DNA of 63,862 bases from Myxococcota bacterium (GTDB lineage: Bacteria; Myxococcota_A; Polyangia; HGW-17): positions 1 to 63,862 of the forward strand of contig JAHJMN010000085.1 of the NCBI GenBank assembly GCA_018821305.1. The letters run 5' to 3'. Positions within the stretch are counted from its first letter, which is position 1. Every line of letters starts with the position of its first letter. The position numbers and the translations under genes are program-made. Under the pieces are notes generated by a model that was not told the DNA's origin, did not search any database, and saw nothing but the letters and a program-made list of their open reading frames with translations. Of the stretch, positions 6,295 to 63,862 are shown piece after piece.

Positions 6295-6354
6295 TCTCAC
6301 TGTTTTCTGCGAAAACAGTTGTCGATTTTGACGATTTCATGCGGAAATACGAAC

Positions 6355-6817: not shown

Positions 6818-6850
6818 TATGTAGTTCAACGAAAAAACTGGAGGAATATT

Positions 6851-8298: not shown

Positions 8299-8576
8299 CT
8301 AAACCGCTTCTTGAGTAATACGATAGTAACTTAATTTAAAGAAATACTTCAGGAAAACGACGCTCAATAGCATTCCCCTGCGCGAAATTGCCTACCTGAT
8401 TGTCCTGATTCTGCTACTGGTTGCCTGTGTACCTGAAATTTTTACAGGTAAGTAGGTAAGCAGGAAACAGGAGCAGCAGCAGGTCGTAAACATTCAGCAT
8501 AAAGGCATAATTACAAAAGAAGACAATAATCCACTCAGTTTGAGATTTCGATCTTTTTACTCAAGAAGCGGTTTAG
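8299..8576 (+). mobile_element. M element, complete copy M-d (MITE, IS630/Tc1-like: TA-flanked, 21-bp perfect TIRs)
   Basis: TA at 8299-8300 and at 8574-8575; left aaccgcttcttgagtaa is the exact reverse complement of right ttactcaagaagcggtt; central cctg-arm / cagg-arm hairpin 8389-8487; conserved core cattcccctgcgcgaaattgcctacctg. Confidence 0.9.
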
Positions 8577-16589: not shown

Positions 16590-18077
16590 ATGAAAAAACT
16601 TACAATCTCTATAATTTTAGGTCTTGCGATGATTGCAGCTCCGGGTTGCGACGATGATTCTTCAAATCCGGCTCAGGAGATCTGTGATAACGGTAAGGAC
16701 GATGATGGCGATGGATTTATTGACTGTCTTGACCAGAACTGCTTTGGTGATCCCGCCTGCAACAGCACTCAGGAAATCTGCGACAACGATCAGGATGATG
16801 ATGGTGACGGATTTGTGGATTGCGATGATGCCGATTGCGTAAACGAATGCGAATACACAGAAATCTGCAACAATGAAATCGACGACGATGACGATGGTTA
16901 TGTAGACTGCGATGATCAGGATTGCTCCGGCAGCCAATTCTGCAATGCAACAGAGGAAATCTGCAACAATAACCTTGATGATGATCTCGATGGTGCCATT
17001 GACTGCGATGACTCCGATTGTTCCGAACATCCATCCTGCATCACAAATGATGAAATCTGTGACAATGGCGTTGATGACGATGGGGACGGGTTTGTGGATT
17101 GCAATGACGCCGATTGCGAAGACGAATGCGAATTAACAGAAGTCTGCAACAATGAGCAGGACGATGATGAAGACGGTTTTGTAGATTGTGAAGATCAGGA
17201 TTGCTGGAATCACCAGTACTGCAACCTTCCTGTGGAAAACTGCACAAACGGCATTGACGACGATATGGACGGCGATGTTGACTGTGAAGACGGCGACTGT
17301 CGTGAACACCCTGACTGCTGGATCACTCAGGAAGATTGTGAAAACGGCATTGACGATGACAACGACGGCTTCGTTGACTGCAACGATTCCGACTGTGCGG
17401 ATCAGTGTGTCTTCCTTGAAAATTGTAATAATCAGATTGATGATGATGGCGATGGATATGTTGACTGTGAAGATCAGGATTGCTGGAACAATCAGGTTTG
17501 TCAGGCTCAGACGGAAATCTGCTATAACGGCCTTGATGATGACGGTGATGGCGACATCGATTGCGATGACTGGGACTGCTATAATTCACCCTATTGCCCG
17601 GGCTCTGAAGAAATCTGCAATAACATGTGGGATGATGATGGCGATGGCGACATCGATTGCGCCGATGCAGACTGCGCAATGGATCCATGGTGTCAGACTC
17701 CTAGAGAACAGGATTGCTCAAACTGGCAGGACGATGATGGCGACGGATATCGTGATTGCCGTGATTCCGACTGCATAGGAGATGCAGCATGCGGTGAATG
17801 TAACGCAGTGGATGGCTCCGGATGCGGAAATGGGACTTATTGCTACTTTGATCGTCAGGATAATTATCAGGGCAACTGCACAACGGAGCATGGTACAGGA
17901 AGTGTTGGAGATCCCTGCCAGACGGAAACGGAATGTTCCGTAGGTCTTTTCTGCAATCAACAAACAGATGTTTGTGACGAACTTTGCCTCCTTGGCACTG
18001 TATGTTCATCCTCAGGCGGCACTGCAACCATGTGTACTGAAGCATGGAACGGAAGCCCCTACGGCTACTGTCCGTAA
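16590..18077 (+). CDS. secreted lipoprotein made of ~11 Cys/Asp-rich putative metal/Ca-binding repeats (ICDNGxDDDGDGFVDCxDxDC)
   Basis: RBS aggagga then ATG at 16590; lipobox LAMIAAPGC; tandem ~37-aa repeats with higher-order ~330-nt nucleotide periodicity; the ORF-track start at 16500 is upstream of the RBS and judged too early. Confidence 0.7.
   Translation: MKKLTISIILGLAMIAAPGCDDDSSNPAQEICDNGKDDDGDGFIDCLDQNCFGDPACNSTQEICDNDQDDDGDGFVDCDDADCVNECEYTEICNNEIDDDDDGYVDCDDQDCSGSQFCNATEEICNNNLDDDLDGAIDCDDSDCSEHPSCITNDEICDNGVDDDGDGFVDCNDADCEDECELTEVCNNEQDDDEDGFVDCEDQDCWNHQYCNLPVENCTNGIDDDMDGDVDCEDGDCREHPDCWITQEDCENGIDDDNDGFVDCNDSDCADQCVFLENCNNQIDDDGDGYVDCEDQDCWNNQVCQAQTEICYNGLDDDGDGDIDCDDWDCYNSPYCPGSEEICNNMWDDDGDGDIDCADADCAMDPWCQTPREQDCSNWQDDDGDGYRDCRDSDCIGDAACGECNAVDGSGCGNGTYCYFDRQDNYQGNCTTEHGTGSVGDPCQTETECSVGLFCNQQTDVCDELCLLGTVCSSSGGTATMCTEAWNGSPYGYCP
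16650..17700 (+). repeat. intragenic tandem DNA repeats (about 111 nt units in about 330-nt higher-order blocks) encoding the Cys/Asp-rich repeats
   Basis: Recurring gaaatctgcgacaa ... gatgatgatggcgatgg ... gattgcgatgat strings at about 111-nt spacing across 16650-17700. Confidence 0.7.
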
Positions 18078-19159: not shown

Positions 19160-19310
19160 CCCTGTTTTCAATCCTGATCCCTGCCCCTGTTTTGCTGATT
19201 CCCTCGCTACCTGATTTCCTGAATGTTCTTGATTTTATCAATGCTTATTCTTTTTTTTAACAATAACAGTTAATACGCCTTAACCAAATAGCATTGGGTA
19301 TAGAAACCTT
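19160..19310 (-). repeat. partial M-k-like unit (CCTG arm) fused to a Q-like module
   Basis: ccctgttttcaatcctgatccctgcccctgttttgctgattccctcgctacctgatttcctgaat then ttaatacgccttaaccaaatagcattggg; compare 60390-60528. Confidence 0.6.
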
Positions 19311-19449: not shown

Positions 19450-21141
19450 ATGTCAGAAAAAGTAATCATTATTGGTGGTTCCGCTGCCGGACCAAAAACC
19501 GCTGCTAAAGTGCGCAGACTCAGTGAAGATGCGGACATTACTATCATTGAAAAAGGTAAATTCCTTTCCATGGCAAGCTGCGGTTATCCCTATTTTGTAG
19601 GAGGAGTGTTCGATAACCGAAACATGCTGCTTTGCACCCCCACAGGCGTTTTGCGTGACCCAACTTTCTACATGAATGCAAAAGCAATAAAAGCTGAAAC
19701 TGAAACTGAAGTTGTTGCAATTAACCGTGCAGAAAAGACCGTTAGTTGCAAACGCACAAATGGTGAAGAGTTCGTCCTTTCTTATGATAAATTGATGATT
19801 TCTACCGGTTCCATCCCTCGAATGCCTTTTAAAGAAGGCCTTGAACTTGATGGAGTAACAACACTTCAATCCATTTCTGATGCGGAATATTTAAGAAAAA
19901 TTCGTGATGAAAAAAAGATTCGCAAGGCTGTCATCATCGGTGGTGGTCTCATAGGTATCGAGACCGCTGAAGCCCTTCGTCTTGCTGGAATCGAAATCAC
20001 AATTGTTGAAATGGCGGATCAGGTCCTGCCTTATCTTGACTGGGAACTTGCCGCTCATGTTGAAAAACACCTTAAAACAAAGGGAGTAAATGTTTTCACC
20101 GGGATGAAAGTTGAAAAACTTATAGGCGAAAACGGAGTAATAACGGCAGTCAAACTTGGAAACGGAACAGAAATCCCATGTGAACTAGCCGTAGTCGCCA
20201 TCGGTGTTTTACCAAACAGGGAGCTAGCTGAAAAAGCAGGCCTTGAAATCGGTGCTGCCGGTGGAATTAAGGTCAACAGTTTTCTCCAGACCAGTGATCC
20301 GGACATATACGCCGCGGGTGATTGTATTGAAATAAATCATATAATTACACAAAAGCAAACATACAGTCCTATGGGCGATCTGGCAAATCTTCAAGGCCGT
20401 ATTGCAGCAGAGAACATGATAAACGGCCCAGAGGTAAAGTTCTCCGGAACTATACAAACAGCCATCTGTCGCATTTTCGAGTACAGTGCTGGCGCTACGG
20501 GCTGCAATGAAAAAGCCGCAAGAGCCGCTGGCTACGATGTCGAAACTGTCATTATAACAGGACCAGACAAACCTGGCTTTATGAATGGTTTGCTCCTGAT
20601 TTCCAAAATGGTTGTGGATCGCAAAACAGGTAGACTAATCGGTTTCCAATGTACAGGCCCCGGGGATGTATCTAAACAGGTAGCTCAGGCAGCTTTAGCA
20701 ATCAAAGGCGGTCTAACGATCAATGATCTCAGGGATCTCGACCTGCCCTATGCACCTCCATTTTCTCTGGCTGTGGACAATTTCATTGCTTGTGCCCACG
20801 CTATGGAGAACAAACTTCTTGGACGAATGAAGGGCATCAGCGCGAGGGAAGTCCGTAAAATGAAGTGTGACAACACATCAAAACCCTTCATTCTGGATGT
20901 CCGTGGTCCTGACGAATTTGAAGCTATGCGCCTTGGAATAGGAGAAGTCCTGATTCCCCTTGGAGCCCTGAGAAAACGAATCAATGAACTTCCCGCCGAT
21001 AAAAATCACGAAATCATTACTTTTTGTAAGATTTCCCTCCGAGGATATGAGGCGGCCCTGATTCTGGTGTCAGCTGGCTACACAAATGTGAAAGTCCTCG
21101 AAGGTGGCATTATGGCATGGCCCTTTGATAGGGAAAAATAG
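19450..21141 (+). CDS. CoA-disulfide reductase/NADH oxidase-like flavoprotein with C-terminal rhodanese domain
   Basis: FAD motif IIGGSAAGPKTA, redox-active Cys in SCGYPYFVGG, second Rossmann GGGLIGIE, C-terminal rhodanese with Cys in FCKISLRG. Confidence 0.85.
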   Translation: MSEKVIIIGGSAAGPKTAAKVRRLSEDADITIIEKGKFLSMASCGYPYFVGGVFDNRNMLLCTPTGVLRDPTFYMNAKAIKAETETEVVAINRAEKTVSCKRTNGEEFVLSYDKLMISTGSIPRMPFKEGLELDGVTTLQSISDAEYLRKIRDEKKIRKAVIIGGGLIGIETAEALRLAGIEITIVEMADQVLPYLDWELAAHVEKHLKTKGVNVFTGMKVEKLIGENGVITAVKLGNGTEIPCELAVVAIGVLPNRELAEKAGLEIGAAGGIKVNSFLQTSDPDIYAAGDCIEINHIITQKQTYSPMGDLANLQGRIAAENMINGPEVKFSGTIQTAICRIFEYSAGATGCNEKAARAAGYDVETVIITGPDKPGFMNGLLLISKMVVDRKTGRLIGFQCTGPGDVSKQVAQAALAIKGGLTINDLRDLDLPYAPPFSLAVDNFIACAHAMENKLLGRMKGISAREVRKMKCDNTSKPFILDVRGPDEFEAMRLGIGEVLIPLGALRKRINELPADKNHEIITFCKISLRGYEAALILVSAGYTNVKVLEGGIMAWPFDREK

Positions 21142-21165
21142 CCTTCACATTTACAGCGATGCCCA

Positions 21166-21447
21166 CGTTACCGTTTTCGGAGTAATACTATAGTGAACAA
21201 TTTTCAGTAAATGCTACAGGAATGAGCCCCTCTAAAGCATTCCGCTGCGCGTTATTGCCTACCTGATTACCTTGTTCATGCTAATGATTTCCTGTTTGCC
21301 TGATTTTTTTTAACAGGAACTCAGGCAGTCAGGCAAACAGGCTCAGGATCAGGTCATAAACATTCAATATCAATGTAAAATTAAAAAGACTGAAAGAAAA
21401 TACTCACTGTTCTATTCTCGATCCTTTTACTCGAAAGCAGTCTAATC
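21166..21447 (+). mobile_element. M element, complete divergent copy M-c
   Basis: TA-ccgttttcggagtaatactatagtgaac ... conserved core aaagcattccgctgcgcgttattgcctacctg ... hairpin ... ctcgatccttttactcgaaagcagtc-TA. Confidence 0.85.
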
Positions 21448-21534
21448 CCCCTTTGCCACCAGACAATATATATTTTTCTCTGAAAATATAACGCAATCAG
21501 TCGATATAGTTGAATATAGACCGTGAGGATTTAA

Positions 21535-31450: not shown

Positions 31451-31451
31451 T

Positions 31452-31697
31452 TTGACCGCTTCATGAGTAAAAGGATCGAAATCTAAAAAGTGAATATTGT
31501 CATCCTACCCTTTGTAATTATGCTTTGATTTTAAATGTTTATGACCTGAACCTGATCCTGATTGCCTGACTACCTGTGTCCCTTTTTAAAATTTCAGGGA
31601 AACAGGAACTCAGTAGCAGGAACAGGAAAACAGGGGGCTCATTCCTGAAGCATTTCTTTAAAACAAGTCACACTCGTATTACTCCGCAAGCGATCTA
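31452..31697 (-). mobile_element. M element, complete copy in reverse orientation (M-g)
   Basis: ttgaccgcttcatgagtaaaaggatcgaaat (reverse complement of right-type end) ... cctg/cagg hairpin ... cattcctgaagcatttctttaaaacaagtcacactcgtattactccgcaagcgatc-TA. Confidence 0.85.
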
Positions 31698-31718
31698 CTT
31701 ATATTTTCAACACCTTGC

Positions 31719-31836
31719 GGTTACTGTCCTGAGCAATAATTGGGCGAAAAATTTGATTTTCGGTATTTCAAAGGGGTCTTTGCCTGAAGTTTTTCTCTAA
31801 AATTCAACACAATCGTATTACTTCACAAGCGGTCAA
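31719..31836 (+). repeat. second S-prime module plus a left-type M terminus in reverse orientation
   Basis: ggttactgtcctgagc ... ttcaaaggggtctttgcctgaagtttttctc then caatcgtattacttcacaagcggtc. Confidence 0.7.
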
Positions 31837-32001: not shown

Positions 32002-32814
32002 GTGAAAACTTTTTTTCTGATTTTTCTATCTTTGTTTCTAGTAAACTGCAAATCCAGTAAGGACGACAAACCACTGCTGGTGGAAAATACAAAAGACACA
32101 CCTGAGACACAGAAGAGCGATCTGAAAACTCCCGATAAAATCAAGAAACCTGCTCCAGAACCGGTTCTAACGGATGAGTTCAAACTTCCGGAAGGTAGCG
32201 CCGGGTATATCTGGATCTCGGACAAAAATCTGACCACAACAGGAAAGATTTTAAAAACTTCAGGTTCCGTGAGCAGTCTTTATTTCATTAAACTCAATAA
32301 TGAAGGCAAATTTGAAATCCTTTCTGCAGCTCCGGATCCAAAGGGTCCCATCGGGATAAACAAAAAATATTTTAATTACCCCAAGGGGCTTTCAGCGGGT
32401 TTGAGTTCCGTCAAAATAAACCATGAAGTTTCGTCAATGGCTGTATATCTTAGTCAATTCAAGAAATCCACCCTTGAAAAAGTTTTCAAAAAACTTCCTG
32501 GGTTCAAACTTAAGACAATACAAGTTGTTGAAAAGCAGGGTTTATTTGCCATTAGTTTAATTTCGACCGTTAATTATTCCAATGATCTGTTTAATGCCCT
32601 GACCTATTGGAAACAACTGGCCTTAAACAGCCGTATCCATATTGAAAAATTAGCACCGGGGGCATCTAAAACTGGTATTGCTTTGAATAATATCAAAATT
32701 ACAGGAAAAAAGAGAACCATTACCGTGGAGATTCCCTTCGCATATGATGACATTCTCTGGTCAGTAAATGAACTGAACCGTCTTTACATTTTTGTTAAAA
32801 GAGGTGGACAATGA
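32002..32814 (+). CDS. hypothetical lipoprotein (LVNC lipobox), upstream of and overlapping rex
   Basis: Signal peptide and lipobox; lysine-rich; ATGA overlap with rex start. Confidence 0.55.
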   Translation: MKTFFLIFLSLFLVNCKSSKDDKPLLVENTKDTPETQKSDLKTPDKIKKPAPEPVLTDEFKLPEGSAGYIWISDKNLTTTGKILKTSGSVSSLYFIKLNNEGKFEILSAAPDPKGPIGINKKYFNYPKGLSAGLSSVKINHEVSSMAVYLSQFKKSTLEKVFKKLPGFKLKTIQVVEKQGLFAISLISTVNYSNDLFNALTYWKQLALNSRIHIEKLAPGASKTGIALNNIKITGKKRTITVEIPFAYDDILWSVNELNRLYIFVKRGGQ

Positions 32815-33482
32815 ACGGAGATAGCACCATTTCATCGAAAGGAAATCCCATTCCTCATGCTACGATGGAGCGTTTGCCCAGATATCTGATGCAACTCTAT
32901 CGCTTCCGGGTTATTGGTGATGCCAATGTATCATCTCAGGCTCTGGGTGAAAGCCTGGGACTCAAAGACACTCAAATCCGAAAGGATCTCTCGTACTTTG
33001 GTGTCTTTGGGAAAGCTCGTTATGGATACAATATTGACTTTCTCATCGATGCTCTGGAGAAAATTCTCGGACTGACTCGAGTTTATAATCTAGCCATCGT
33101 TGGAGCTGGAAACATCGGCCGAGCCCTGGCAACGTACCGAGGTTTCGAGAGTAGAGAATTTAGAGTAAAACTGATTTTCGACAATAATAAAGGTCTCATC
33201 GGTCAGGATATTGGAGGCATTGTTGTTCAGGACTTTCGACTGCTTGAAGAAAAGATAAAAGAAATTCCCGTCGATATAGCGATAATTGCGGTTCCTGAAA
33301 AAGCCGCTTATGAAGTAGCTGAAACCCTTGTAAAAGCAGGCATTAAAGCAATTTATAACTTTACACCTGCGGAACTTCACCACCACGAAGGTGTTTTCAT
33401 TGAGCATGCAAGTATATCCTTCGGGATTTACAAACTTGCTCACCACCTTTCCGGCCACTGGCCCCGGAAATCCCAGCGCTAG
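32811..33482 (+). CDS. rex: redox-sensing transcriptional repressor Rex
   Basis: N-terminal winged helix IPHATMERLPRYLMQL and Rossmann IVGAGNIGRALA NADH-binding motif. Confidence 0.85.
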   Translation: MNGDSTISSKGNPIPHATMERLPRYLMQLYRFRVIGDANVSSQALGESLGLKDTQIRKDLSYFGVFGKARYGYNIDFLIDALEKILGLTRVYNLAIVGAGNIGRALATYRGFESREFRVKLIFDNNKGLIGQDIGGIVVQDFRLLEEKIKEIPVDIAIIAVPEKAAYEVAETLVKAGIKAIYNFTPAELHHHEGVFIEHASISFGIYKLAHHLSGHWPRKSQR

Positions 33483-33561
33483 TCCGTTTCCTGAGAAAAA
33501 GGATCGAGATTAGAAGAGTGAATATTGGCTTCCCGCTTTTGTAATTTTACATTGATATTGG
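33483..33561 (-). repeat. M-element fragment (right-type end and first about 60 nt), truncated
   Basis: gtccgtttcctgagaaaaaggatcgagattagaagagtgaatattggc ... ttttgtaattttacattgatattg aligns with 31452-31530. Confidence 0.6.
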
Positions 33562-33565
33562 ATGC

Positions 33566-34012
33566 TTATGAAACTCTTATCTGCTGTCCAGGCATTCTCA
33601 TTACTGGACAACCATTTCTTCGTTTATCATTATTTTTCTCGCCCTTTGTATTTGGGCAGGCATCATCAGTATCTGGAATTCCGTCACCATCATTATCCAA
33701 ATCAGGACATCCATCTGAGTCATCAAACCCATCACGATCCTCGGGCTTATCTGGACAAGCGTCTCGAACATCGGGGATTCCATCTCCGTCAGTATCAACT
33801 TTCGATGCCGGATCCGGGATATTGGAATCTTTGGATGTATCGGTTTTATTACTGCTTCCTTTCCGATCTTCAGGAGTTACTATTGTGGATTCAGTTGACG
33901 CACTTCCACAACTGGAAACAGTCAGAACAAAGGACAAGCCCGCTATTATTGAAGACACTGATTTCCCTGATGGATATTTGACTTCATTTGTTTGGATCTT
34001 TTGCAGTTTCAT
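33566..34012 (-). CDS. small lipoprotein with thrombospondin type-3-like Ca-binding repeats
   Basis: Lipobox LTVSSCGS; repeats [16 protein letters not shown] / [17 protein letters not shown]. Confidence 0.6.
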
Positions 34013-34160
34013 GAATGGAGCATAATCAATTTTTCAGATTCTTCAACGCCTTTTTTAATTCGCCATAATAGAATCCTGATTCCTGAATATTTCATTGACA
34101 AATAAACTTTTGCTTTTAAAATCAGTCTAGATTAAAACCCGCAAAGGAAAGGAGAATCTC

Positions 34161-36211: not shown

Positions 36212-37132
36212 ATGCCAGATTTCAGAAGTATGGGAATTACTGATTTACTTCTTGCTCATCCGTCTTTACAGACAATGTTCATTTTTTTACTCCCAACGTT
36301 TGCAATATTTCTATTTATTGTCCAGTGGGCTGAAAGTAAAAAAGAAGACGCACTCAAAGATAATTTAGCAATGTTAAAAACAGGACTATACATTGTTGAG
36401 ATTATGGCAGTATTTTATGCAGTTGGTGGTGTTTTCCTTCTTATCGATTTCATATTCAGCAAAATGACTTCAGAACCACTCAACACATCTGCACTGAAAG
36501 CCGGTCTTGGATACATCATTGGTGGTGCTGCCGTTACGATTGCCATGGAGCTTGCAATTGTTTTCCTTGGTACTCCTGAAAAAAATCGCCTGCCTCGAAA
36601 ACTTGCTTTCACAAGCATGCTTCTTATTTTCGCCATCGTTGCAGCTGAAAGTATGCTCAGACTCCTTGCATCCATCACCATGTTCCCCAAAGGAGCTGCA
36701 TTCCATGTTCCGCTGTCCGGATTCCTGGTATACGTTCCCGCTACTTTCTTCGCTATGCTTTACTACAAAGCAATCTTCAGTAGCGACAACGGGCCAGTGA
36801 CTTTCCTTCCGGGAAGTTTTGTTAACAAAGCCAATCAAATGGTAGAAAAATCCGGCGTTGGATCCTTCGGCGCTGCTGCAGTCGGTGGTGCCGCTGCTGC
36901 TGGAATGGGCGGAGCTCCCGCTGCATCTCAACCCCAGCAGTATTCTCAACCCGTTGCTCAGGCTCAGCCTCAGCAGTTTTCTCAACCTGTTGCTCAGGCT
37001 CAGCCCCAGCAGTTTTCTCAACCCGTTGCTCAGGCTCCTGCAGCAAATGCATGTCCCACCTGCGGTGCTGCCGGTCGTCATATTCCCCAGTACAGCCGCT
37101 ACTGGTGCGATACCTGCCAGAAATATCTCTAA
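36212..37132 (+). CDS. polytopic membrane protein with triplicated QPQQFSQPVAQA repeat and C-terminal zinc ribbon
   Basis: About 6 TM helices; three near-perfect 12-aa repeats (nucleotide-level identical); C-terminal CPTCG...CDTC. Confidence 0.6.
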   Translation: MPDFRSMGITDLLLAHPSLQTMFIFLLPTFAIFLFIVQWAESKKEDALKDNLAMLKTGLYIVEIMAVFYAVGGVFLLIDFIFSKMTSEPLNTSALKAGLGYIIGGAAVTIAMELAIVFLGTPEKNRLPRKLAFTSMLLIFAIVAAESMLRLLASITMFPKGAAFHVPLSGFLVYVPATFFAMLYYKAIFSSDNGPVTFLPGSFVNKANQMVEKSGVGSFGAAAVGGAAAAGMGGAPAASQPQQYSQPVAQAQPQQFSQPVAQAQPQQFSQPVAQAPAANACPTCGAAGRHIPQYSRYWCDTCQKYL

Positions 37133-55088: not shown

Positions 55089-56513
55089 TTAAAACTGGAA
55101 ATAAATAAAGGGGACAACCTGTGAAGATGTCATTTTCTGCAGTAAGATTGCAAAGCCAAACAACGCAATGGTCTGAACAGCAATGGACGACTTCATGTAT
55201 AAATTCTCCAGAATTACTAAAATACGTAAGGGCAGGAAATTAACAGCGTAAGCACCGAAAATAAGAGTCAGAACTGTCCATGGAAGATTTGCATGAGAAA
55301 AGGTCAGATCCCCCAGCCTTGCGAAAAGTGATAGTGCCTGGGTGAAACTCGATGCTCTGAAAAACACAAATGCTGCAACAACAAACTGAAGTGTAAACAC
55401 AACCCCACCAATTTTAATCAACATATTCGTGGATTTAGCTTGATTATCACGTATTCCCATTGCCCGGGTCAGTGCAAGTCCAAATCCATGCAGACCTCCC
55501 CATACCACAAATTTCCAGGCACTGCCATGCCATAGTCCGCCTAAAAGCATCGTGATCATTAAATTGAGATAAGTAAGAGCCGGAAGCCTGGTTTTCGAAC
55601 CGCCAAGGGGAATATACAAGTAGTCTCTGAGCCATGTACTCAAACTTATGTGCCATCGGTGCCAGAATTCACTCAGGTTTGAAGCTCTGAATGGTTGATT
55701 AAAGTTTTCAGTAAGATTGAAACCAAGTAAAAGTGCTGCACCGATAGCAACATCACTGTAACCGGAGAAATCACAGTATATCTGTGCAGTGTAACCGTAA
55801 AGGCCAACTAAAATCTCCAGAGATGACATCATTTCGGAAGCATTGAAAACCCTGTCCACAAGATTTATTGCAATAAAATCAGCCGTGACTTTCTTAAAAA
55901 GGCCAATCATAATAAGAATAACGCCTCTAGCATATAGTGCATCAGAGAGCAGAGGGCGTTGATTTATCTGAGGTAAAAAATCCGAAGCACGTACAATTGG
56001 CCCCGCCACGAGCTGCGGAAAAAAACTTACATAAAAAGTATAATTTAGAAGACTGCGCTCCGGAGCAATTTTGCCACGAAAGACATCTATTGTGTAACTC
56101 ATGGTCTGAAAAGTATAAAAAGAGATACCCACCGGGAGTGTTATTTTACTTAAAAAAGCTATTTCGGGAGAAAAATGTACTCCAAAAACAGAAAAAACGG
56201 TTTCAATGCTCGACTTAGCGAATAAGGCATACTTGAATATAACTAAAACGCTGAGGGATGTAATTACACTTACGCCAAGCCAGAACTTCCTACGGGAAAG
56301 AGTTGTTTTTCGATGAAGTCGGTTGGCACTTTCCCAGGACACCCAGGTGGTTAAAAGAATCAAAGGCAAATACCATGGATTCCACATTCCGTAGAAAAAC
56401 AATGAACTGATTGTTAGAAAAAAAGTCCTGAATCGAAGGGCGTTTACTGCCATCCATGCGACGGAAAAAACAATAAAGAAAAAGATGGCAAAGGAGATAC
56501 TGTTAAAAAACAT
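55089..56513 (-). CDS. MBOAT-family membrane O-acyltransferase (AlgI/DltB-like)
   Basis: Multi-TM; conserved His in WHRWHISLSTWLRDYLYIPLGG; 474 aa. Confidence 0.85.
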   Translation of the reverse strand: MFFNSISFAIFFFIVFSVAWMAVNALRFRTFFLTISSLFFYGMWNPWYLPLILLTTWVSWESANRLHRKTTLSRRKFWLGVSVITSLSVLVIFKYALFAKSSIETVFSVFGVHFSPEIAFLSKITLPVGISFYTFQTMSYTIDVFRGKIAPERSLLNYTFYVSFFPQLVAGPIVRASDFLPQINQRPLLSDALYARGVILIMIGLFKKVTADFIAINLVDRVFNASEMMSSLEILVGLYGYTAQIYCDFSGYSDVAIGAALLLGFNLTENFNQPFRASNLSEFWHRWHISLSTWLRDYLYIPLGGSKTRLPALTYLNLMITMLLGGLWHGSAWKFVVWGGLHGFGLALTRAMGIRDNQAKSTNMLIKIGGVVFTLQFVVAAFVFFRASSFTQALSLFARLGDLTFSHANLPWTVLTLIFGAYAVNFLPLRILVILENLYMKSSIAVQTIALFGFAILLQKMTSSQVVPFIYFQF

Positions 56514-57982
56514 CAGTGACTCCCCTGACCTTTCAAGTATCTTCTATATGCTTTGATAACTTCCAGATAGATAATACTTCCTAAAAGTGCGCCCCCGTCA
56601 TCAGTAAAATGTGTCAGATCGCCTACGGCAAGCCGTGGTTTTCGTTCATACCATTTAACAATTGATGCATTTCCCCCCATCGCCTTCCAAGCATTGAAGT
56701 AAGCACAACCATAGTTCGTGGCAATTTCTCGTTGAAATTCAATAATATGATGTATTACAGGTTTTGTCTGATACTCGCCACGGTACTTTCTAACAACATC
56801 CGTTGGCCCAATTATTAGACAGCTCATTTTTTCAAACCTGGAAGAAATACTTGCCATGAGTTTTCGCACGGTATTTTTATAATTATCGTCAATACCGCCG
56901 TCACTTTCATTCAGCCCAAACTGCATTACCATCAGTCTGGTTCCTCGCTTATCAAGGTTCCCAAGCATACTTTCAGTCTTCATGGTGGCGAGATTACTCA
57001 TTCTCGCCCCCGTAAGAGATATCGTATCAACCGAAACCCCGGGGGAATTATTTGAAAGTACGGCGCCCCCGGCCTGAACAAATCCACCCAACGTTTCCAC
57101 TGTGATTATATCCGTTTCAAATCCATCAACTCTAACATAATCTTCCTTTGAGGATTTTCCTGCGGTGGAAATTGTCTTAAGTACGCGGTCTCGAATCCGA
57201 ATAGAAACATCCCCTCCTTCTGGGTGCCTGATAAAATGAAAAACGATGGAATTAAAGGGTTTTTTATAATTTTCGCGTAATTTCCATGTTGTCATCCCAC
57301 CCATTCCGGTCTTTTCCACAAGTATGCCACCCAAGCCAAACATTCGATGGTTTACAGGATTTTTAAGAATATTGTATGTAACATTCCAATAATTATAAGA
57401 TAAATATAACTGGCTATGAGTCTGCCAATGCCAGATATTTTTAATAAAAACGAAACCGGGGCCAGAATCACCAAACTTTTTCTGGATTCTATCTCTGAAT
57501 GTAGAAATGACTTTATCACCAGAAGTAATGGAGTCGCCATACCAGGTTACAACCGACTGTTTCCCTGACTTTATTTTGTCAAGACTTTCAAAAAACGAGT
57601 CCAGAGCCCATTTCTTACATCCCGGACCTTCTTTAACGCATGGAATTTCGAAGATCCTGCTAATTTCCGGCTTCATCAACTGACCTTTTTCAATATAGGG
57701 CAGGTTTCTTTTCATTGTTTTTACAGGAGATACCGCTTTTTCCACGGAAGTATCATTCTCGAGACTTTTCTCTACATCTTCAATCTCGCTCGTCACTTTC
57801 TCGGGCTCCGGAGGCATTTCTGAATAAACCTTCATGTTCCTGTCGCGAGTGACTCTCTTGTAGAAAATTTTGACGGAAGGAAAAAGAGACCATTTAACTG
57901 GAAGAAAACCCAAAACAACGACACTGATAATCAATATAGAGAAGACAATAAATGGTTTTGCAGGAAAAGATTGAAAAGACAT
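56513..57982 (-). CDS. membrane-anchored SGNH-fold partner of the MBOAT (AlgJ/AlgX/DltD-like)
   Basis: N-terminal TM; SGNH block I WYGDSITSG; 1-bp start/stop overlap with the MBOAT gene. Confidence 0.6.
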   Translation of the reverse strand: MSFQSFPAKPFIVFSILIISVVVLGFLPVKWSLFPSVKIFYKRVTRDRNMKVYSEMPPEPEKVTSEIEDVEKSLENDTSVEKAVSPVKTMKRNLPYIEKGQLMKPEISRIFEIPCVKEGPGCKKWALDSFFESLDKIKSGKQSVVTWYGDSITSGDKVISTFRDRIQKKFGDSGPGFVFIKNIWHWQTHSQLYLSYNYWNVTYNILKNPVNHRMFGLGGILVEKTGMGGMTTWKLRENYKKPFNSIVFHFIRHPEGGDVSIRIRDRVLKTISTAGKSSKEDYVRVDGFETDIITVETLGGFVQAGGAVLSNNSPGVSVDTISLTGARMSNLATMKTESMLGNLDKRGTRLMVMQFGLNESDGGIDDNYKNTVRKLMASISSRFEKMSCLIIGPTDVVRKYRGEYQTKPVIHHIIEFQREIATNYGCAYFNAWKAMGGNASIVKWYERKPRLAVGDLTHFTDDGGALLGSIIYLEVIKAYRRYLKGQGSH

Positions 57983-58417
57983 GTTCAGATATAGTAAACC
58001 AACGGTTAAAGTCGCTCAGAGACTAAATCATTTAAATGCCATGGTAAAGAAATAAAAATCAAGCAATCATTTTTATTTATCCCTTTTACATTCATTGTGT
58101 TAATCGCCTTTTGGGGAAAAATATTCCCCCATAAAAAAGAACTGACTAGTAAATTGTTGGAAAAACAATATTAGAACACTAAGAATAATACCCAGTACTT
58201 TTTCCAGAGAAATTCTCTTGAATTCCTTTGGATACCGCTGATTCGGTGGATAACCATGTCAATTTTATATTAAATATACGTCGCAAAAACAAGAAAATGC
58301 TTGATAACAACAAGGGGCCTGATTAAAATGATTTGGAGCTGAGATTTCTTTTGAGAAAATTTTTGAATCAATTTTTAACACCTCCGTCATCTGACATCAG
58401 TTGACAAGGATGGTTTC

Positions 58418-59209
58418 ATGAAAAATATTTTTTTTATCACATCATTTTTCTTATTTTCCACAATGTTTCCCTCTCGCTCGTCTGCGGACAGTGTTGACGT
58501 ACTTATAAACACTTTAAAAACCAGCGACAACTATAAAGTAAGGGTTACGGCAGCTATGCTCTTATCCCGACATAAAGGGATACCCAAAGCATTCAGCGCA
58601 CTTGTATATGCTCTCAATAATGACAAACATCCTACAGTTCAGGGAACAGCAGCTATGTCTCTTGGAAAACTCGGAAACAAATCTGCCATCCCCTTTCTTC
58701 AGACCGCCTCTAAAAAAGGTAACAGTTACGTGCGCAAAATGGCAAAAGATGCCATAAAATTGCTCGAAAACGATTGTCCTCCTGTTGAATTAAAAGGAAA
58801 ACAGATTTACCTCAATATTGGGTCATTCAGTGTGTCCGGGTATAAAAGCTCTCAGGCAAAAATTCTGGAGTCCCTTAGAAGTCAATTTACTTCAGAATTT
58901 GAAAAAGTTTCATATATCAGTCCCCGGTGGCCAAAGTGCAAAAAACCTTCTGACAAAGAGCTAAAAAGCAAAAAAATGAAGGGCTTCATGCTTGATGGCA
59001 CTCTTATTATATCGCATTCAGGAGGTGAACTCAGTTGTCAACTTAAGGTTTTTTTGACAACTTACCCAAGAAAAGCCATAAAAATGATGACAAGTGCAAA
59101 TGCAGCGCTGACAGGAAATCTTGATACGTCAACGATTCAGCAGTGTTTTGAAGCTGCTGTTCCTGCGGTAGTTCCTAACGTTAAACGATTTCTTGCAAAC
59201 CAGTTGTGA
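58418..59209 (+). CDS. HEAT/PBS-lyase repeat lipoprotein
   Basis: Signal peptide; three HEAT-like repeats (YKVRVTAAMLLSRH, HPTVQGTAAMSLGKLG, SYVRKMAKDAIKLL). Confidence 0.6.
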   Translation: MKNIFFITSFFLFSTMFPSRSSADSVDVLINTLKTSDNYKVRVTAAMLLSRHKGIPKAFSALVYALNNDKHPTVQGTAAMSLGKLGNKSAIPFLQTASKKGNSYVRKMAKDAIKLLENDCPPVELKGKQIYLNIGSFSVSGYKSSQAKILESLRSQFTSEFEKVSYISPRWPKCKKPSDKELKSKKMKGFMLDGTLIISHSGGELSCQLKVFLTTYPRKAIKMMTSANAALTGNLDTSTIQQCFEAAVPAVVPNVKRFLANQL

Positions 59210-59222
59210 TATTGAGGTTAAA

Positions 59223-60149
59223 ATGAACGCTCCAGCAAAACCAAAGCGACATCTAAAAAATTATCTTCTCGATAAAGAATTCCAGTTGACCTATGCTCTC
59301 ATCATGGCGTTTATTGCCATTATTCTTTCGGGTCTCATGGGATACCTGATGTTCAAACAGGTACGTGATTCCTCAATGATGCAGGAACGTCAAGCCAATG
59401 AAAACATTGGCATTTTCCAATCGCAATCCAATGATACTATCAAAGTTTTCAAAGAAGCATCAAACAAGACGGAGTCGGTTTTTTCAAGTCAATCTGAGGA
59501 AACTAAAAAAGTTTTTGAAAACAAAACCAAAGTTGCCACAGAAATTCTGAAACTAATGATGACTGTGGAAGATCTCAAAATAATGGCTGAGGACAATCTG
59601 AAGAGAATAAAAGAAGATGATAAAAAAGCCATTGCAGAAATGGCTAAGCGAATAGATAAAGACAAGGGAATTCTGAAGTCTGAAATCGCCAACGGTATCA
59701 AGCAGAAAGAAAGTCAACTTAAAGTTGCTTTGGAAAAACTTCAGAAAGATAAATCCCGTGCCCTTGAAGTTCGCAGAATCAACAATCGCCGTATTCTCTT
59801 TGGAATAATTATCTTTTCAATAATCTTCATAGTTGTCATCTTCCTTTATACAATTGTGCTTACTCACAAAGTTGCTGGGCCGTTGTTCAAAGTCAGTCTT
59901 TATCTTAAAAAAATGGAAGATGCCAACTTTACTCCGATCTGGCCACTTCGTAAAGGCGACCAACTTCAGGATTTTTATGAAAAATTCTCCACAGCATATA
60001 AAGCTGTTGCCAGTAGAATCACTACTGATGTAAGCGAACTGGATCGAATTATCACAGAATTTGAGACTTCTGGTGCTGATGAAAAAACACTTAACGATCT
60101 CAAAGCCCTTCGCGACCGTAAAAAAGAATCTGTAAAAGAATTCAAATAG
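59223..60149 (+). CDS. membrane protein with long N-terminal coiled coil, one TM and C-terminal domain
   Basis: Start at ATG 59223 behind a gaggt RBS (ORF-track start 59193 lacks one); Lys/Glu-rich coiled coil; TM ILFGIIIFSIIFIVVIFLYTIVL. Confidence 0.55.
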   Translation: MNAPAKPKRHLKNYLLDKEFQLTYALIMAFIAIILSGLMGYLMFKQVRDSSMMQERQANENIGIFQSQSNDTIKVFKEASNKTESVFSSQSEETKKVFENKTKVATEILKLMMTVEDLKIMAEDNLKRIKEDDKKAIAEMAKRIDKDKGILKSEIANGIKQKESQLKVALEKLQKDKSRALEVRRINNRRILFGIIIFSIIFIVVIFLYTIVLTHKVAGPLFKVSLYLKKMEDANFTPIWPLRKGDQLQDFYEKFSTAYKAVASRITTDVSELDRIITEFETSGADEKTLNDLKALRDRKKESVKEFK

Positions 60150-60161
60150 TTCGTCAGTTTA

Positions 60162-60528
60162 ACTTAACCCCAACAGTATTGTGTCTAATGGCAATGCTGA
60201 TCGGTTAGCGAACTTCCGAGTGAATTAATTAATAAATACAATCTTGTATAATAATTTCAGGCAGGCAGGAATTCAGGAAAACAGGGATCAGGAACAGGGC
60301 GTTTACTTTGAAGGTGTGCGTTTTTGTGGCATAAAGACCGCTTTCGTAAGCGGTCAAGATCGATTTCAATTCAGTATTTGCATATACACCTTCAGGAACA
60401 AGACCCTGTATCCTGATTCTGCTCCTGTTTCTGACTCCCTGAATATTTTTACTATTACTTATTATTATTATTTTTGTTAACAATATCAACTAATACGCCT
60501 TAACCGATCAGCATTGTGTCTAATGGCA
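60162..60528. repeat. composite locus: Q module (A-B), inverted CAGG/CCTG hairpin unit M-k with palindromic core agaccgctttcgtaagcggtc, then Q module (B-prime-A)
   Basis: 60174-60207 cagtattgtgtctaatggcaatgctgatcggtta and 60490-60528 aatacgccttaaccgatcagcattgtgtctaatggca share attgtgtctaatggca directly and gctgatcggtta inverted; cagg arm 60258-60296; cctg arm 60392-60440. Confidence 0.7.
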
Positions 60529-61248
60529 GATACAGTCTTCAGTCCACCCCATATGGGGACACATGCTCCAGCCGTAGTAATCTCCCTCAAAGTCAAGAAC
60601 CACCATTTCCGTTCCGTCAACTGTGGAACGATAGAAGCCGGAATCTATTTGTCCCCCACTGCCATTCAGCAGCATCAAACACAAAGGCGCCGAAACACCT
60701 TCATCGAATTCGGTGCACACACCATCAGCATATGAAGCTCTTGGCTCGTCGGGTAAAAAATCAGAACAACCGTATGCAAAACAGTCTTCTTGGTTGGTGA
60801 AAGTATCACATACAGCAGGATCAAAGTCCGGACAGACGCATTGGAGGCGGAGAAGACGGTCATTTTCACCTGACATATCACACATTGTCCATCCTGCAAG
60901 ATCACTCAGATTTGACTCAAGTCTGATTCCCTCTCTTCCGGTGGCCGTATCTCTTACCCAGATGTAACTGGATGGTTTGGTATTGTCATCTTCCATTGAA
61001 GCTACACAGAGGTATGTATACACGGACTCAAAGTTTGTGCAAACCGTTCCATCCAGTGTAGCATTTCCAGCTACCCGAATCCAGGCACCGCATCCGGCAT
61101 CAAGGCAGCTGCTCTCAGTAGTGAATTTTTCACAGTCCTTCGGTGGTCCATCATCATCGCAGGCAACAAAGAGGAAAGTACTCACAAAGATTACACCTGA
61201 AAAGATAATTTTCTTTATCGTCTTACTCCAAGTAAAGGTCAAGTACAA
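60520..61248 (-). CDS. cysteine-rich secreted lipoprotein (242 aa)
   Basis: Lipobox FLFVAC; about 24 Cys; flanked on both sides by repeat elements; stop codon inside repeat module Q. Confidence 0.55.
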   Translation of the reverse strand: MYLTFTWSKTIKKIIFSGVIFVSTFLFVACDDDGPPKDCEKFTTESSCLDAGCGAWIRVAGNATLDGTVCTNFESVYTYLCVASMEDDNTKPSSYIWVRDTATGREGIRLESNLSDLAGWTMCDMSGENDRLLRLQCVCPDFDPAVCDTFTNQEDCFAYGCSDFLPDEPRASYADGVCTEFDEGVSAPLCLMLLNGSGGQIDSGFYRSTVDGTEMVVLDFEGDYYGWSMCPHMGWTEDCICH

Positions 61249-61379
61249 GGAAACAGCTTATAGGCATACTTCAGAGAAACACTTCTGTACCATGATAGAA
61301 ATTCAAGATTCTAACTGAAATATATTTCAATAAAAGCTTATTTACAATAAACATTTAAACTCTAACACTATACTCCAAT

Positions 61380-61660
61380 TCTAGACCGCTTGCGGAGTAA
61401 TACGATTGTGACTCGTTTTAAAGAAATGCTTCAGGAAAGAGCCCCCTCTATGGCATTCCGCTGCGCGAAATTGCCTACCTGTTTTCCTGTTGCTGCTACT
61501 GCTTACCTGGTTACCTGAAATTTTAAACAGGTATACAGGAAGTCAGGAAAACAGGTTCAGGATCAGCGGTTAAACATTCAATATCAATAATAATTAAAAA
61601 GAATGTAATTTTTAATTCATTTTCCCAATTTCGATCCTTTTAATCCGCAAGCGGTCTAAT
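61380..61660 (+). mobile_element. M element, complete reference copy M-a (about 277 bp between TA flanks)
   Basis: TA-gaccgcttgcggagtaatacgattgtgactcg ... core gcattccgctgcgcgaaattgcctacctg ... cctg arm/loop aaattttaaa/cagg arm ... cgatccttttaatccgcaagcggtc-TA; followed at 61689-61702 by ttcaggacacgaac. Confidence 0.9.
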
Positions 61661-61733
61661 TTCCATTTTCGCATTCGCCATTTTAATTTTCAGGACACGA
61701 ACGAATTAAGTGGTGGACTGGATATCGGAAATT

Positions 61734-63149
61734 ATGCACACTGTGGAAAGAATATGGAGGAGACATTCTTTGAAAAATATTACTTATTATCTACTGTTTT
61801 TATTTGTCTTATCATGTATATCCTGTTCAGATGATAAATCTACTAAATCATCTGTCATTTATGAACCAGATGAAGAAGACCTTGATGAAAACGGTTTACC
61901 CAAACCTGGATTCGAAGTTCGAATTCCCGTTATAACTGATATTGATGAATACGTTATTGAACTCGAGAGATGGGAAATTCCTTCCGATGGCACTGATTTC
62001 GCAACGACGACTACCAACTTGCAGGCCGCTATTGATTGGGCACACAATGAAGGCTATTCCCGCGTAGTTTTGCCCCAGGGCCAATACCTGGTAAGTAAAG
62101 ATGTAAACGACAATTATCAAGGTGGAATTGAAATTTATGGAAATACAGAGTTTGTATTCAGTGAAGGTGCCGAAATAATAATGGATACAAACGACAAATG
62201 GAACTATTGCGTGCTGCGCCTGAATGGTGACAACATTATCGTCCGTAATGGCATTATTACCGGAGATCGCGATACCCATGTGTTTACACCGAGATCTGAC
62301 GGTGGTACTGCTCATGATGAAGGGCATGGAATTTGTGTGTGGGAAAACAACAACGTGCTCATTGACAATATGGAAGTCCGGGATTTGACCGGGGACGGTT
62401 CCCTCGTGCTTGATTCAACGGACATTACTATTGTTTCCTGTGATATTTACAATAATCGAAGGCAGGGAATTTCTATTGTGGGTGGCGTGAGGATTGCGGT
62501 AACTGATAATACTATTCACCACATTAATGGTACAGCACCACAGTTCGGTATAGATATCGAGGGTCCCGGTCGCCTGGATAAAGATATTCTGATACAAAAT
62601 AACAGTTTTCATCACAATACAGGTGGGGATATTGTTAATGCCACTGGCGAAAACGTTTATATTCTCGATAATGTAATGGAGCAGGGTGAAGGCAGCACTT
62701 ATGTCGATGGTCCTTTGGTAACCTGGCATAAAACCCACAGCATAATTGCAAGAAATACAATCTCAATGATTTCAGGTTCGGTAAACGGTCGTCTGGGTTT
62801 TATACAGTACTCCGGCGGTGGTGACAAAGGGCACAATCGGGCAACCTACGTTCACGATAATATCTGTAATAATTGTGGAATGTACATGTATAAAAGCTCC
62901 CAGGCGGATGTACGTCGGAATCAATTCCTCGGGTACTTTATGGCGTTCAGCAAATTCGTGAACGTCATACTGATTGATAATCTTGTGACATTTTCCGATG
63001 AATACCCTGACCTCAGGTATTGCTGGTCATACCGTTTTGATGATGTTACAGGTTTCGCAAGTGGAAACCGTTTAGGAGACGCCATCGAAGAAATTCCCCT
63101 TTCTGAAACCGAGCCCTACACACTCCAGTGTGTCCTTTACGGCTGGTGA
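61734..63149 (+). CDS. right-handed parallel beta-helix (pectate-lyase-fold) secreted protein
   Basis: Repeated NxxxxGI/V beta-helix coils (GDRDTHVF, NRRQGISIVGG, NTGGDIV); lipobox-like LSCISC; alternative TTG start at 61770 has the better RBS (ggagg at 61756) and gives a clean lipoprotein signal. Confidence 0.6.
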   Translation: MHTVERIWRRHSLKNITYYLLFLFVLSCISCSDDKSTKSSVIYEPDEEDLDENGLPKPGFEVRIPVITDIDEYVIELERWEIPSDGTDFATTTTNLQAAIDWAHNEGYSRVVLPQGQYLVSKDVNDNYQGGIEIYGNTEFVFSEGAEIIMDTNDKWNYCVLRLNGDNIIVRNGIITGDRDTHVFTPRSDGGTAHDEGHGICVWENNNVLIDNMEVRDLTGDGSLVLDSTDITIVSCDIYNNRRQGISIVGGVRIAVTDNTIHHINGTAPQFGIDIEGPGRLDKDILIQNNSFHHNTGGDIVNATGENVYILDNVMEQGEGSTYVDGPLVTWHKTHSIIARNTISMISGSVNGRLGFIQYSGGGDKGHNRATYVHDNICNNCGMYMYKSSQADVRRNQFLGYFMAFSKFVNVILIDNLVTFSDEYPDLRYCWSYRFDDVTGFASGNRLGDAIEEIPLSETEPYTLQCVLYGW

Positions 63150-63172
63150 ACTATACAAAAACTGTTCATGAC

Positions 63173-63285
63173 TATACCGCTTCCTGAGTAATACGATTGT
63201 GACTCGTTTTAAAGAAATGCTTCAGGAAAGAGCCCCCTGTTTTCCTGTTGCTGCTACTGCTTACCTGGTTATCTGAAATTTTGAG
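63173..63285 (+). mobile_element. M element 5-prime portion (copy M-j), with a 32-bp internal deletion removing the conserved core, truncated within the hairpin
   Basis: Near-identical to M-a positions 61383-61447 and 61480-61521 (one mismatch, tt vs ta, at 63270-63271); breaks off after ctgaaatttt. Confidence 0.85.
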
Positions 63286-63416
63286 AAAACATCTTCTCCA
63301 AAAAAAGGTTTACACCTTATATATGTTAGGTTATAAATCATTTAAGCCCGAAGTTTTCGGGTTTAAATGCAAACAGATCATGAGCACCAGTTTGCTCAAA
63401 CAATGGAGGCAATAAT

Positions 63417-63707
63417 ATGGAATTATCGGTATGCGGAGTTGATTGCAGTGAATGTGAATTTTTCAAAAACCAAACCTGTGCAGGTTGTAATGCCATAAAG
63501 GGAAAGGTTTTCTGGACCACCCATCTGAATACAGATGTATGTCCAATTTACAGTTGTGTTTCAACTGTCAAAAACGTAGATGATTGTGGAAAGTGTGGCG
63601 ATGTTCCCTGTAAAATATGGAAAGACTTACGCGATCCCGCCTGGGATGACCAGCAGCACGCCGAAAGCATCCGCAAACGCCTCGATAACCTGAAAACCCT
63701 CAAATAA
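63417..63707 (+). CDS. small cysteine-rich protein (DUF3795-like)
   Basis: 96 aa, about 14 Cys in CxxC-like pairs (CGVDCSEC ... CAGC ... CGKCGDVPC); RBS tggaggc. Confidence 0.6.
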   Translation: MELSVCGVDCSECEFFKNQTCAGCNAIKGKVFWTTHLNTDVCPIYSCVSTVKNVDDCGKCGDVPCKIWKDLRDPAWDDQQHAESIRKRLDNLKTLK

Positions 63708-63709
63708 TT

Positions 63710-63862
63710 AATTACTGTCCTGTAATACAATAAATCAAATTTTTCGCCGATTTTTTGCTCAGGACAGTAACAACGAAGACCTTGAAATTATTGTAGTGTT
63801 CTGAATAGCATGTTTTCGTAAACATGCTCAATTTTGATAAAAATTGAATTTCAGGACACGAA
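63710..63862 (+). repeat. S-T composite repeat, copy 3 (complete S hairpin plus T module, running to the window edge)
   Basis: TA-ctgtcctg (63712-63722) ... caggacag-TA (63760-63770); T module 63775-63862 nearly identical to 52-140; hairpin 63807-63828. Confidence 0.85.

Follow-up and report, generated by a model that had tools for sequence, protein, structure and literature searches.

Small inverted-repeat elements of a probable mosaic family in a variable segment of an uncultured Myxococcota genome

What are the repeats that bound every gene at the end of a contig from an uncultured, low-GC Myxococcota lineage, and are they peculiar to that end? The contig of 63,862 nt, which belongs to a metagenome-assembled genome and was analysed over its whole length (hereafter the window), closes with a gene for a Cys-rich putative lipoprotein, a gene for a beta-helix protein and a DUF3795 gene. 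An initial annotation of this DNA had described them as three small accessory-type genes, each bounded by repeat modules in an arrangement prone to recombination. In our view it is likely that this stretch varies in structure and has taken up a lineage-specific mosaic family of small non-coding elements, which have inverted repeats at their ends and fold as hairpins. Elements of this kind are well known in bacterial genomes; the family itself is previously undescribed, and it is unusual in its inverted CCTG/CAGG arrays, in the joining of its half-units both ways and in its density. Together with contig L001, which extends the window, 66 kb of sequence were available for this genome.

Repeat modules of the terminal segment

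All four spacers between 60150 and 63862 are built from repeat modules, and each of the three genes is thus repeat-bounded, as had been proposed. The elements of the segment are the following.

60163-60528: first spacer (IG1), Q module and composite
60163-60193, + strand: left Q module, a degenerate B' (CTTAACCCCAACAGTAT) followed by A (TGTGTCTAATGGCA, 60180-60193)
60194-60514, no strand: quasi-palindromic element M-k, 321 bp
60258-60300, + strand: CAG(G) array of 7 motifs, spacing 4-8 nt
60336-60355: central hairpin GACCGCTT-TCGT-AAGCGGTC, 8-bp stem
60404-60445, + strand: C(C)TG array of 6 motifs, spacing 6-8 nt
60495-60528, + strand: right Q module, with B at 60501-60514 and A at 60515-60528
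61381-61659, + strand: second spacer (IG2), M-a, a full M element with parts L (61382-61445), I (61447-61477), C (61478-61524), G (61525-61566), R1 (61571-61600) and R (61629-61658)
61688-61702, + strand: solo S/T-type terminus TTTCAGGACACGAAC
63172-63282, + strand: third spacer (IG3), M-j, an L-C half element with neither the 30-nt I module nor any of the right half
63708-63862, + strand: fourth spacer (IG4), an S-T unit of about 153-159 bp that continues 1-4 nt past the window end
63807-63828: T hairpin AGCATGTTT-TCGT-AAACATGCT

The mirrored Q modules that had been noticed around the composite M-k were borne out. Its ends are perfect terminal inverted repeats of 14 bp, ATGCTGATCGGTTA (60194-60207) pairing with TAACCGATCAGCAT (60501-60514), or 16 nt at 100% if the adjacent CA/TG is counted, and directly outside them the A 14-mer stands as a perfect direct repeat at 60180-60193 and 60515-60528, which extends to a perfect match of 15 nt. 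The A copy of the right Q module contains the stop codon and the final two codons of the Cys-rich gene. Between these ends the parts follow in the order terminal repeat, AT-rich arm, CAGG array, reverse complement of L', central hairpin, L', CCTG array, AT-rich arm, terminal repeat, with the AT-rich arms and then the 14-bp repeats lying outside the arrays; the inverted arm order, with the CAGG array first and the CCTG array second, is therefore as originally described. The composite is self-complementary at 62.6% of 358 aligned positions (E = 8.6e-9), and its DNA folding z-score is −6.95.

Both halves of the composite align colinearly with the L-C units of the M elements, the right half as L'-C' and the left half as its reverse complement. 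The palindrome at the centre is perfect, with a stem of 8 bp rather than the 7 bp first given and a span of 60336-60355. As a contiguous 20-nt string it is unique in the window, but its arms GACCGCTT and AAGCGGTC are the canonical termini of about ten M copies, here abutted head to head. An M element is accordingly a pair of half-units in tail-to-tail arrangement, the arrays lying centrally and the GACCGCTT/AAGCGGTC termini outside. The composite pairs two diverged L-C half-units of M head to head instead, so that the termini form the central hairpin and the arrays are external. The Q-type end is not confined to this locus either: a third, diverged copy lies near 19279-19302, and the stretch 19162-19302 matches the right half of the composite, with a CCTG array, the same AT-rich stretch of 75 nt (76% identity) and the Q-type end CTTAACCAAATAGCAT.

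Among the M elements, M-a has 25-nt inverted arms that match at 88%, and the ends of the copy at 8299 (M8299) are perfectly complementary over 20 nt. An open reading frame (ORF) of 42 codons within M-a is interrupted in M8299, and no ORF is conserved. M-j ends exactly at the centre of the C/G palindrome of M. The near-identity of M-a and M-j that had been pointed out holds: 64 of 67 nt are identical in L and 46 of 47 in C, including uninterrupted matches of 53 and 36 nt. They are the closest pair in the family, and the alignment of the two opens precisely at the canonical L terminus, with unrelated flanks. The recent duplication proposed for them would accordingly concern the element itself, for the alignment agrees with recent copying, or conversion, of that element. 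The M termini also contain a hypervariable triplet in the context GCTT-NNN-GAG (GCG, CCT, CTT, TCG, CAT, TCA or GTG; for example at 61392-61394, 63183-63185 and 8310-8312). All three L differences between M-a and M-j fall in the first 14 nt, and both ends of one element agree in the triplet in M-a and in M8299.

The S-T unit has inverted termini, TTAATTACTGTCCTG and the reverse complement of TTATTTCGTGTCCTG, that match at about 11 of 15 positions, and AAATAA stands at both of its edges. It folds as a hairpin together with a three-way junction, with a z-score of −6.1. The loop that the central palindrome and the T hairpin had been said to share is TCGT in both; the string common to the two, TTTCGTAA, has 7 matches in the window where 3.3 are expected, a number reached by 5 of 100 shuffles and not clearly above chance, and a third T copy has a TCCT loop.

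It would be conceivable that so repeat-rich a contig end is a mis-join of different loci or strains. Contigs of this population and of its relatives regularly end inside repeat modules (L001, L002, L008, L009, L012 and L021 all do), and the window itself starts and ends in copies of one S-T unit (1-139 and 63738-63862, 90% identical over 125 nt). However, the stretch 55231-63862 is 100% identical, in the same arrangement, in three separate assemblies including L001 and L002; L002 stops exactly at the window end, whereas L001 continues unbroken for a further 2.25 kb. Because three assemblies agree on the arrangement, and since the modules of the segment differ enough for unique assembly, we regard an artefact as extremely unlikely.

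Distribution of the family across the window

At least three element types share modules: M, S-T (with termini ...TGTCCTG/CAGGACA...) and the 321-bp Q-type composite. The canonical M element measures 250-283 bp. Its parts are, in order, L (TAGACCGCTT-NNN-GAGTAATACGAT...), a 30-nt hairpin I that may be missing, the CCTG array, an AT loop, the CAGG array, R1 and finally R (...AAGCGGTCTA). Complete or partial copies of M were found at 131, 6339-6599, 6775, 8299, 10709, 21166, 31451-31836, 33480, 35011, 61381 and 63172 and beyond the window end, and they are spread over all orientations and all types of spacer. The module map places S, T, Q and U modules and solo arms elsewhere in the window as well. 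In all, modules occupy 16 of the 32 window spacers, about 42% of the intergenic bases and 5.4% of the window, and the 66 kb carry more than 20 module-bearing sites. With modules in half of the spacers, repeat-bounded genes are the norm in this genome, and the last three are not exceptional in that respect; the repeats belong to the genome as a whole and are no cassette system special to one contig end. The densest cluster is the 900-bp spacer at 5950-6850, nearly all of which consists of nested modules (S-T, C, S, U, R, R1, C/G, L, an S-type arm and L).

The window contains 15 clusters of at least five CTG or CAG motifs, with spacings such as 8, 6, 6, 8 and 8 nt, where 0.28 are expected in shuffles. 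Complementarity between the CCTG and CAGG arms is no greater within an element than between elements, from which it follows that the motif array, and not its pairing, is conserved. The idea that the CAGG arrays act as a sponge for CsrA was set aside, as the conserved core is CAGG and GGA occurs in just 2-4 motifs per array. The units measure 110-320 bp and have 31-37% GC, and several fold strongly (z-scores of −6.95, −6.95 and −6.1).

Such folds raise the possibility that the modules are functional cis-regulatory or RNA elements, namely transcript-end hairpins, promoters or structured 3' untranslated regions that spread and are retained by selection and recombination and not by transposition. 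Five S-type left ends in the window lie just behind co-oriented genes, starting 1-9 nt past the stop codon; the composite and M8299 are each situated between convergent genes; and besides the fold of the S-T unit there are compensatory differences in the S variants (ACTGTCCTG/CAGGACAGT versus CGTGTCCTG/CAGGACACG) and in the T hairpins (AGCATG/CATGCT versus AGTATG/CATACT). Against this, Rfam gave no family match over the window at the gathering threshold, and a permissive search of 60100-63862 reached at best 21.7 bits where the threshold is 50; a simple terminator scan was passed by the T hairpin alone; M stands in every orientation and spacer type; the lack of extra complementarity within elements indicates that pairing of the arrays is under no visible selection; and the presence or absence of modules at orthologous sites (see below) shows that the genes manage without them. 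As a general account of the family we therefore judge this explanation improbable. For single elements a role of this sort is compatible with the data because of the strong folds and the S ends shortly past stop codons, and the folding predictions would allow that the composite, lying between convergent genes, and the S-T unit may serve as transcript-end structures, a suggestion that we put forward weakly.

The family is missing from every public collection that was searched. Patterns for the L terminus and for S had no match in the GTDB species genomes, and a single JGI metagenome match to the L-terminus pattern lay within a coding region and was judged to be due to chance. The window stretch 60150-61709, which covers the composite, the Cys-rich gene and M-a, has no similarity in plasmid or phage collections.

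Comparison with related genomes

The close relative used for comparison is represented by contigs from the sequencing run SRR32001354 (L018, L021 and L009), with 86-90% nucleotide identity to the window, or about 88%. L018 matches the window at 89.7% over 58281-60149. Its homology resumes at 63300-63343 and again at 63371-63708, which holds the DUF3795 gene (79.6%), and past this gene L018 continues directly with the sequence that L001 has beyond the window end. The intervening part of the window has no counterpart there.

60150-63299: block of 3150 bp without counterpart in the close relative, comprising the composite, the Cys-rich gene, M-a, the beta-helix gene and M-j

In L018 a gene for a 308-aa protein is thus followed directly by the DUF3795 gene, and 46 unrelated nt (1871-1916) take the place of the block. 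The S-T unit is likewise missing from L018: with 63708-63866 removed, the window is colinear across the junction apart from a 3-nt indel. A 27-nt hairpin with a 12-bp stem (63344-63370), which in the window stands upstream of the DUF3795 gene and 3' of the promoter-like site of that gene, is replaced in the relative by 160 nt that contain a U module. The segment hence differs from a relative of about 88% identity in at least three ways. The expectation that its gene content would vary was correct as far as two genes, three repeat units and S-T are concerned, all of which the relative lacks at this site; the DUF3795 gene keeps its place in both genomes, which leaves two variable genes out of three. 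That the block might be of foreign composition was considered and dropped, its GC content being 41.6% (60150-63299) compared with 42.4% for the window.

Differences of the same type are seen away from the terminal segment. In L021 (86% identity) one spacer measures 102 nt against 393 nt in the window, where the extra 295 nt (21154-21448) hold the element M21170 with TA on each side; the L021 site has a single TA. Upstream of the gene for a flavin adenine dinucleotide (FAD) oxidoreductase (19450-21141) the relative has an M-type R terminus, whereas the window has a Q-type module.

The beta-helix gene does occur in the run of the close relative, at another locus. In L009 it is 87% identical, has a different Cys-rich lipoprotein gene upstream, and is followed by S modules that begin about 10 nt past its stop codon. 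Homology between L009 and the window is limited to 61696-63150, and its left breakpoint falls inside a CAGGACACGAAC motif, just inside the 3' end of the solo terminus at 61688-61702. In L008, which stems from another run, the Cys-rich gene is present at 80% identity with another neighbour and no composite downstream, and its homology to the window stops inside the A repeat of the right Q module. L008 was tried as an empty site for the composite and rejected: its downstream DNA is unrelated since the neighbouring gene differs, and 145 of 2000 shuffles score equally.

More distant relatives, with 60-70% amino acid identity in the HEAT protein, keep the gene order MBOAT-GDSL-HEAT-306aa but differ in the genes downstream and carry no modules. 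In general, the relatives L004, L006, L010 and L013-17 (60-79% amino acid identity) keep either this gene order or the beta-helix gene and have no modules, so that they are of no use for empty-site tests.

Since genes separated by imperfect palindromic repeats are absent as a block from a relative, one may ask whether the repeats are recombination sites of the attC kind in an integron-like or other site-specific cassette system. In integrons the attC sites measure 57-141 bp and have RYYYAAC...GTTRRRY cores, the cassettes are co-oriented promoterless ORFs, and an IntI integrase and an attI site are present. Three L-C units are indeed co-oriented here (at 60336, 61381 and 63172), and the beta-helix gene appears to move as a gene-sized unit, given the extent of its homology in L009. 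But no integrase or recombinase is encoded in the 66 kb; the repeats, of 110-320 bp and two to three times longer than attC sites, are without RYYYAAC/GTTRRRY core sites, and the ends of the 321-bp composite, GGTTAGC and CTTAACC, do not fit such cores; the genes lie in both orientations, the DUF3795 gene with its own promoter-like site; and the same modules stand between ordinary housekeeping genes across the window. The nearby transfer-messenger RNA (tmRNA) gene offers no support either, as the window contains no duplicate of its 3' end, for which reason an island integrated at ssrA was also discarded. The likeness to integron cassettes therefore ends at the palindromic repeats between genes and the gene content that varies between strains, and the missing integrase and core sites, the size of the repeats and the orientation of the genes all contradict the reading; we hold it to be very improbable.

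Origin of the elements and of the variable segment

[quoted passage not shown] The units are small and non-coding (M 249-283 bp, the composite 321 bp, S-T about 155 bp); terminal inverted repeats are seen in M-a, M8299, the composite and S-T; many copies are dispersed in one genome; and there is insertion polymorphism, S-T and M21170 being absent from L018 and L021, respectively, and U being found only in L018. Candidate target-site duplications, which are suggestive, are the TA beside M, the AAATAA or TA beside S-T and the perfect 14-bp repeat beside the composite. Movement of the elements would have been driven in trans, by a transposase whose gene lies in another part of the genome. Recombination and deletion would then act on the many similar copies and on palindromes prone to breakage, and the intervening genes would be shuffled as a result. 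Two features may be traces of such breakage, with repair at the repeats: M-j stops precisely at the centre of the palindrome, and the left block boundary retains just the last 17 nt of what would be an older Q-type end.

Several observations weigh against this interpretation. Pfam scans of most of the predicted proteins in the 66 kb of the window and L001 revealed no transposase, recombinase or RAYT gene (RAYT, REP-associated tyrosine transposase), and the comparative evidence comes from four short contigs of two sequencing runs only. The target-site duplications are unproven: the TA flanking M could equally belong to its terminal repeat; AAATAA at the S-T edges, against a single CAATAA in the relative, could be due to duplication or to microhomology; and the 14-bp direct repeat around the composite would be an unusually long duplication, with no empty site for comparison. 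As for the shuffling of genes, the 46 nt at the block junction in L018 contain no residual module, which means that repeat-mediated recombination is not demonstrated, and judged from the sequences at hand the direction of the difference, gain or loss of the block, appears not to be polarised. Of the recombination-prone modular arrangement that had been proposed, the structural differences from the relative are thus real, whereas no sign was found that repeats mediated the rearrangement.

A bolder version would make the half-units and palindromic joins the working parts of an integrase-free gene-shuffling system, in which the arrays bind a host or element protein, and breakage at palindrome centres in an SbcCD-encoding genome, followed by repair between copies, moves gene-sized units such as the beta-helix gene. 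We think this improbable and offer it as speculation. The genes for SbcD and SbcC, a hairpin and palindrome nuclease, lie at 255-4833, at the start of a contig that is rich in quasi-palindromes of 250-320 bp.

Comparison with known repeat systems

Repetitive extragenic palindromic (REP) sequences, with the bacterial interspersed mosaic elements (BIMEs) and hairpin-forming REP doublets (REPINs) derived from them, could provide another origin: the short GC-rich hairpins (the central hairpin, I and the termini) would be moved in single-stranded form by RAYT, and the larger units would be mosaics, as are the BIMEs of E. coli. The modules do occur in many combinations and orientations, hairpins of 20-24 nt are present, two inverted REP-like termini with a spacer resemble a REPIN, M has no clear target duplication, and the termini within one element sometimes agree in the variable triplet while differing between elements. 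Like BIMEs and REPINs, the present family consists of mosaic palindromic units that are extragenic, form larger hairpins as inverted pairs and often lie just after genes. REPs, however, are GC-rich palindromes of 20-40 nt with a GTAG or CGTC tag (PMC3733652), and the units described here are AT-rich, 150-320 bp long and without such a tag, the bases before ACCGC/ATCGC being CTAG, CTAA, CTAT, CGTT, CCAG and GTAG. No RAYT gene lies within the 66 kb, and REPs do not make a perfect 14-bp flanking direct repeat such as that of the composite. The length, the AT-richness and the missing tag make BIMEs and REPINs the weaker match, and we consider this origin unlikely.

By their behaviour, the closest analogues of the family are the Correia elements and the BOX/RUP/SPRITE repeats. 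Correia repeat enclosed elements (CREE) of Neisseria are small MITEs near gene ends or starts that can affect expression (PMC10969869). They share with our elements the small non-coding units with terminal inverted repeats, TA flanks, an intergenic position, long hairpins and insertion polymorphism between strains. The M elements differ from them in being larger (250-283 bp) and in having a central inverted pair of CCTG/CAGG arrays with a spacing of 6-8 nt, and the modules of the present family recombine into several architectures, with no cognate transposase known here. The BOX, RUP and SPRITE repeats of Streptococcus pneumoniae are modular (boxA-boxB-boxC), their types cluster and nest in intergenic regions, and some have terminator-like hairpins (PMC10969869). 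The cluster at 5950-6850 and the terminal 3.7 kb, in which modules are mutually clustered, resemble them, whereas the sequences and the phylum are unrelated, the half-units here are joined tail to tail (M) and head to head (composite), and one type has a 14-bp flanking direct repeat. An interior made of a short tandem array is known from BrickBuilt, a MITE of Porphyromonas gingivalis with an internal minisatellite of 23 bp (PMC4596501); in the present family the array is instead a degenerate CCTG repeat of 6-8 nt that occurs twice, in inverted orientation.

The present data thus document a very dense repeat family in uncultured low-GC Myxococcota, with insertion differences between close relatives. 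They overturn no current view and are a local case study rather than a surprise, albeit a compact case for how mosaic MITEs form palindromic dimers and accompany the gain and loss of genes. They further flag the segment as a hotspot for the gain and loss of secreted lipoprotein genes, and they account for the fragmentation of assemblies of this lineage, whose contigs end inside modules.

Genes of the terminal segment and of the window

As judged from the ORFs of the window and Pfam scans of most of the predicted proteins, the window carries ordinary chromosomal genes. A tRNA search of the window gave no match. The genes and gene-associated features of the terminal segment are listed here.

60520-61248, − strand: Cys-rich putative lipoprotein gene, with a lipobox, no Pfam match, an orphan
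61770-63149, + strand: beta-helix (NosD-like) lipoprotein gene, right-handed, Beta_helix/NosD in Pfam, 459 aa
63300-63343, + strand: promoter-like region of the DUF3795 gene, TTTACA-17 nt-TATAAA, conserved in the relative, hexamers read directly
63417-63707, + strand: DUF3795 gene (Pfam), at the orthologous place in the relative

The positions first given for the Cys-rich and DUF3795 genes stand. The beta-helix gene most likely starts at TTG 61770, after a GGAGGAG site and in agreement with the 459-aa NCBI call, rather than at 61734. The view of all three as small accessory-type genes does not apply to this gene, which is highly conserved and no small orphan: its product is 69-73% identical to proteins of Flavobacteriia (Aquimarina, Flavivirga and Maribacter). 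The gene has a different neighbourhood in each of five related Myxococcota contig sets (L009, L010 and L013-L017). The similarities and the changing neighbourhoods suggest transfer across phyla of a roaming single gene.

The Cys-rich protein has a single homologue, 85% identical, among 5.8 billion proteins. Its longest ORF begins at TTG 61248, and within 61186-61248 the window has ATA where the L008 orthologue has its start codon (ATG AAA AAA...). The NCBI call of 221 aa would remove the lipoprotein signal peptide. In L008 (943-1242) and L009 (2-382) the neighbours are other small Cys-rich lipoproteins without a counterpart in the window, and this suggests that the repertoire of secreted Cys-rich proteins varies within the lineage.

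The promoter-like region of the DUF3795 gene, which is sigma-70-like, begins right at the block boundary and is 86% identical to L018 1917-1960. About 1.5 kb past the window end, the tmRNA gene lies at L001 10169-10518 (− strand); it encodes the tag AEDNSLALAA, and its 3' end points toward the variable segment.

Further inside the window, R and R1 modules (33480-33571) overlap the start of the ORF 33525-34025, which has no Pfam match, as well as the end of the gene 32811-33482; the annotated start of this ORF is probably too early. Three tandem repeats are coding. They consist of 12 Cys/Asp-rich units of 87-99 nt at 16677-17792, in a gene for a 525-aa protein without a Pfam match, four EGF-like units of 96 nt at 7325-7708, and three units of 36 nt at 36927-37037.

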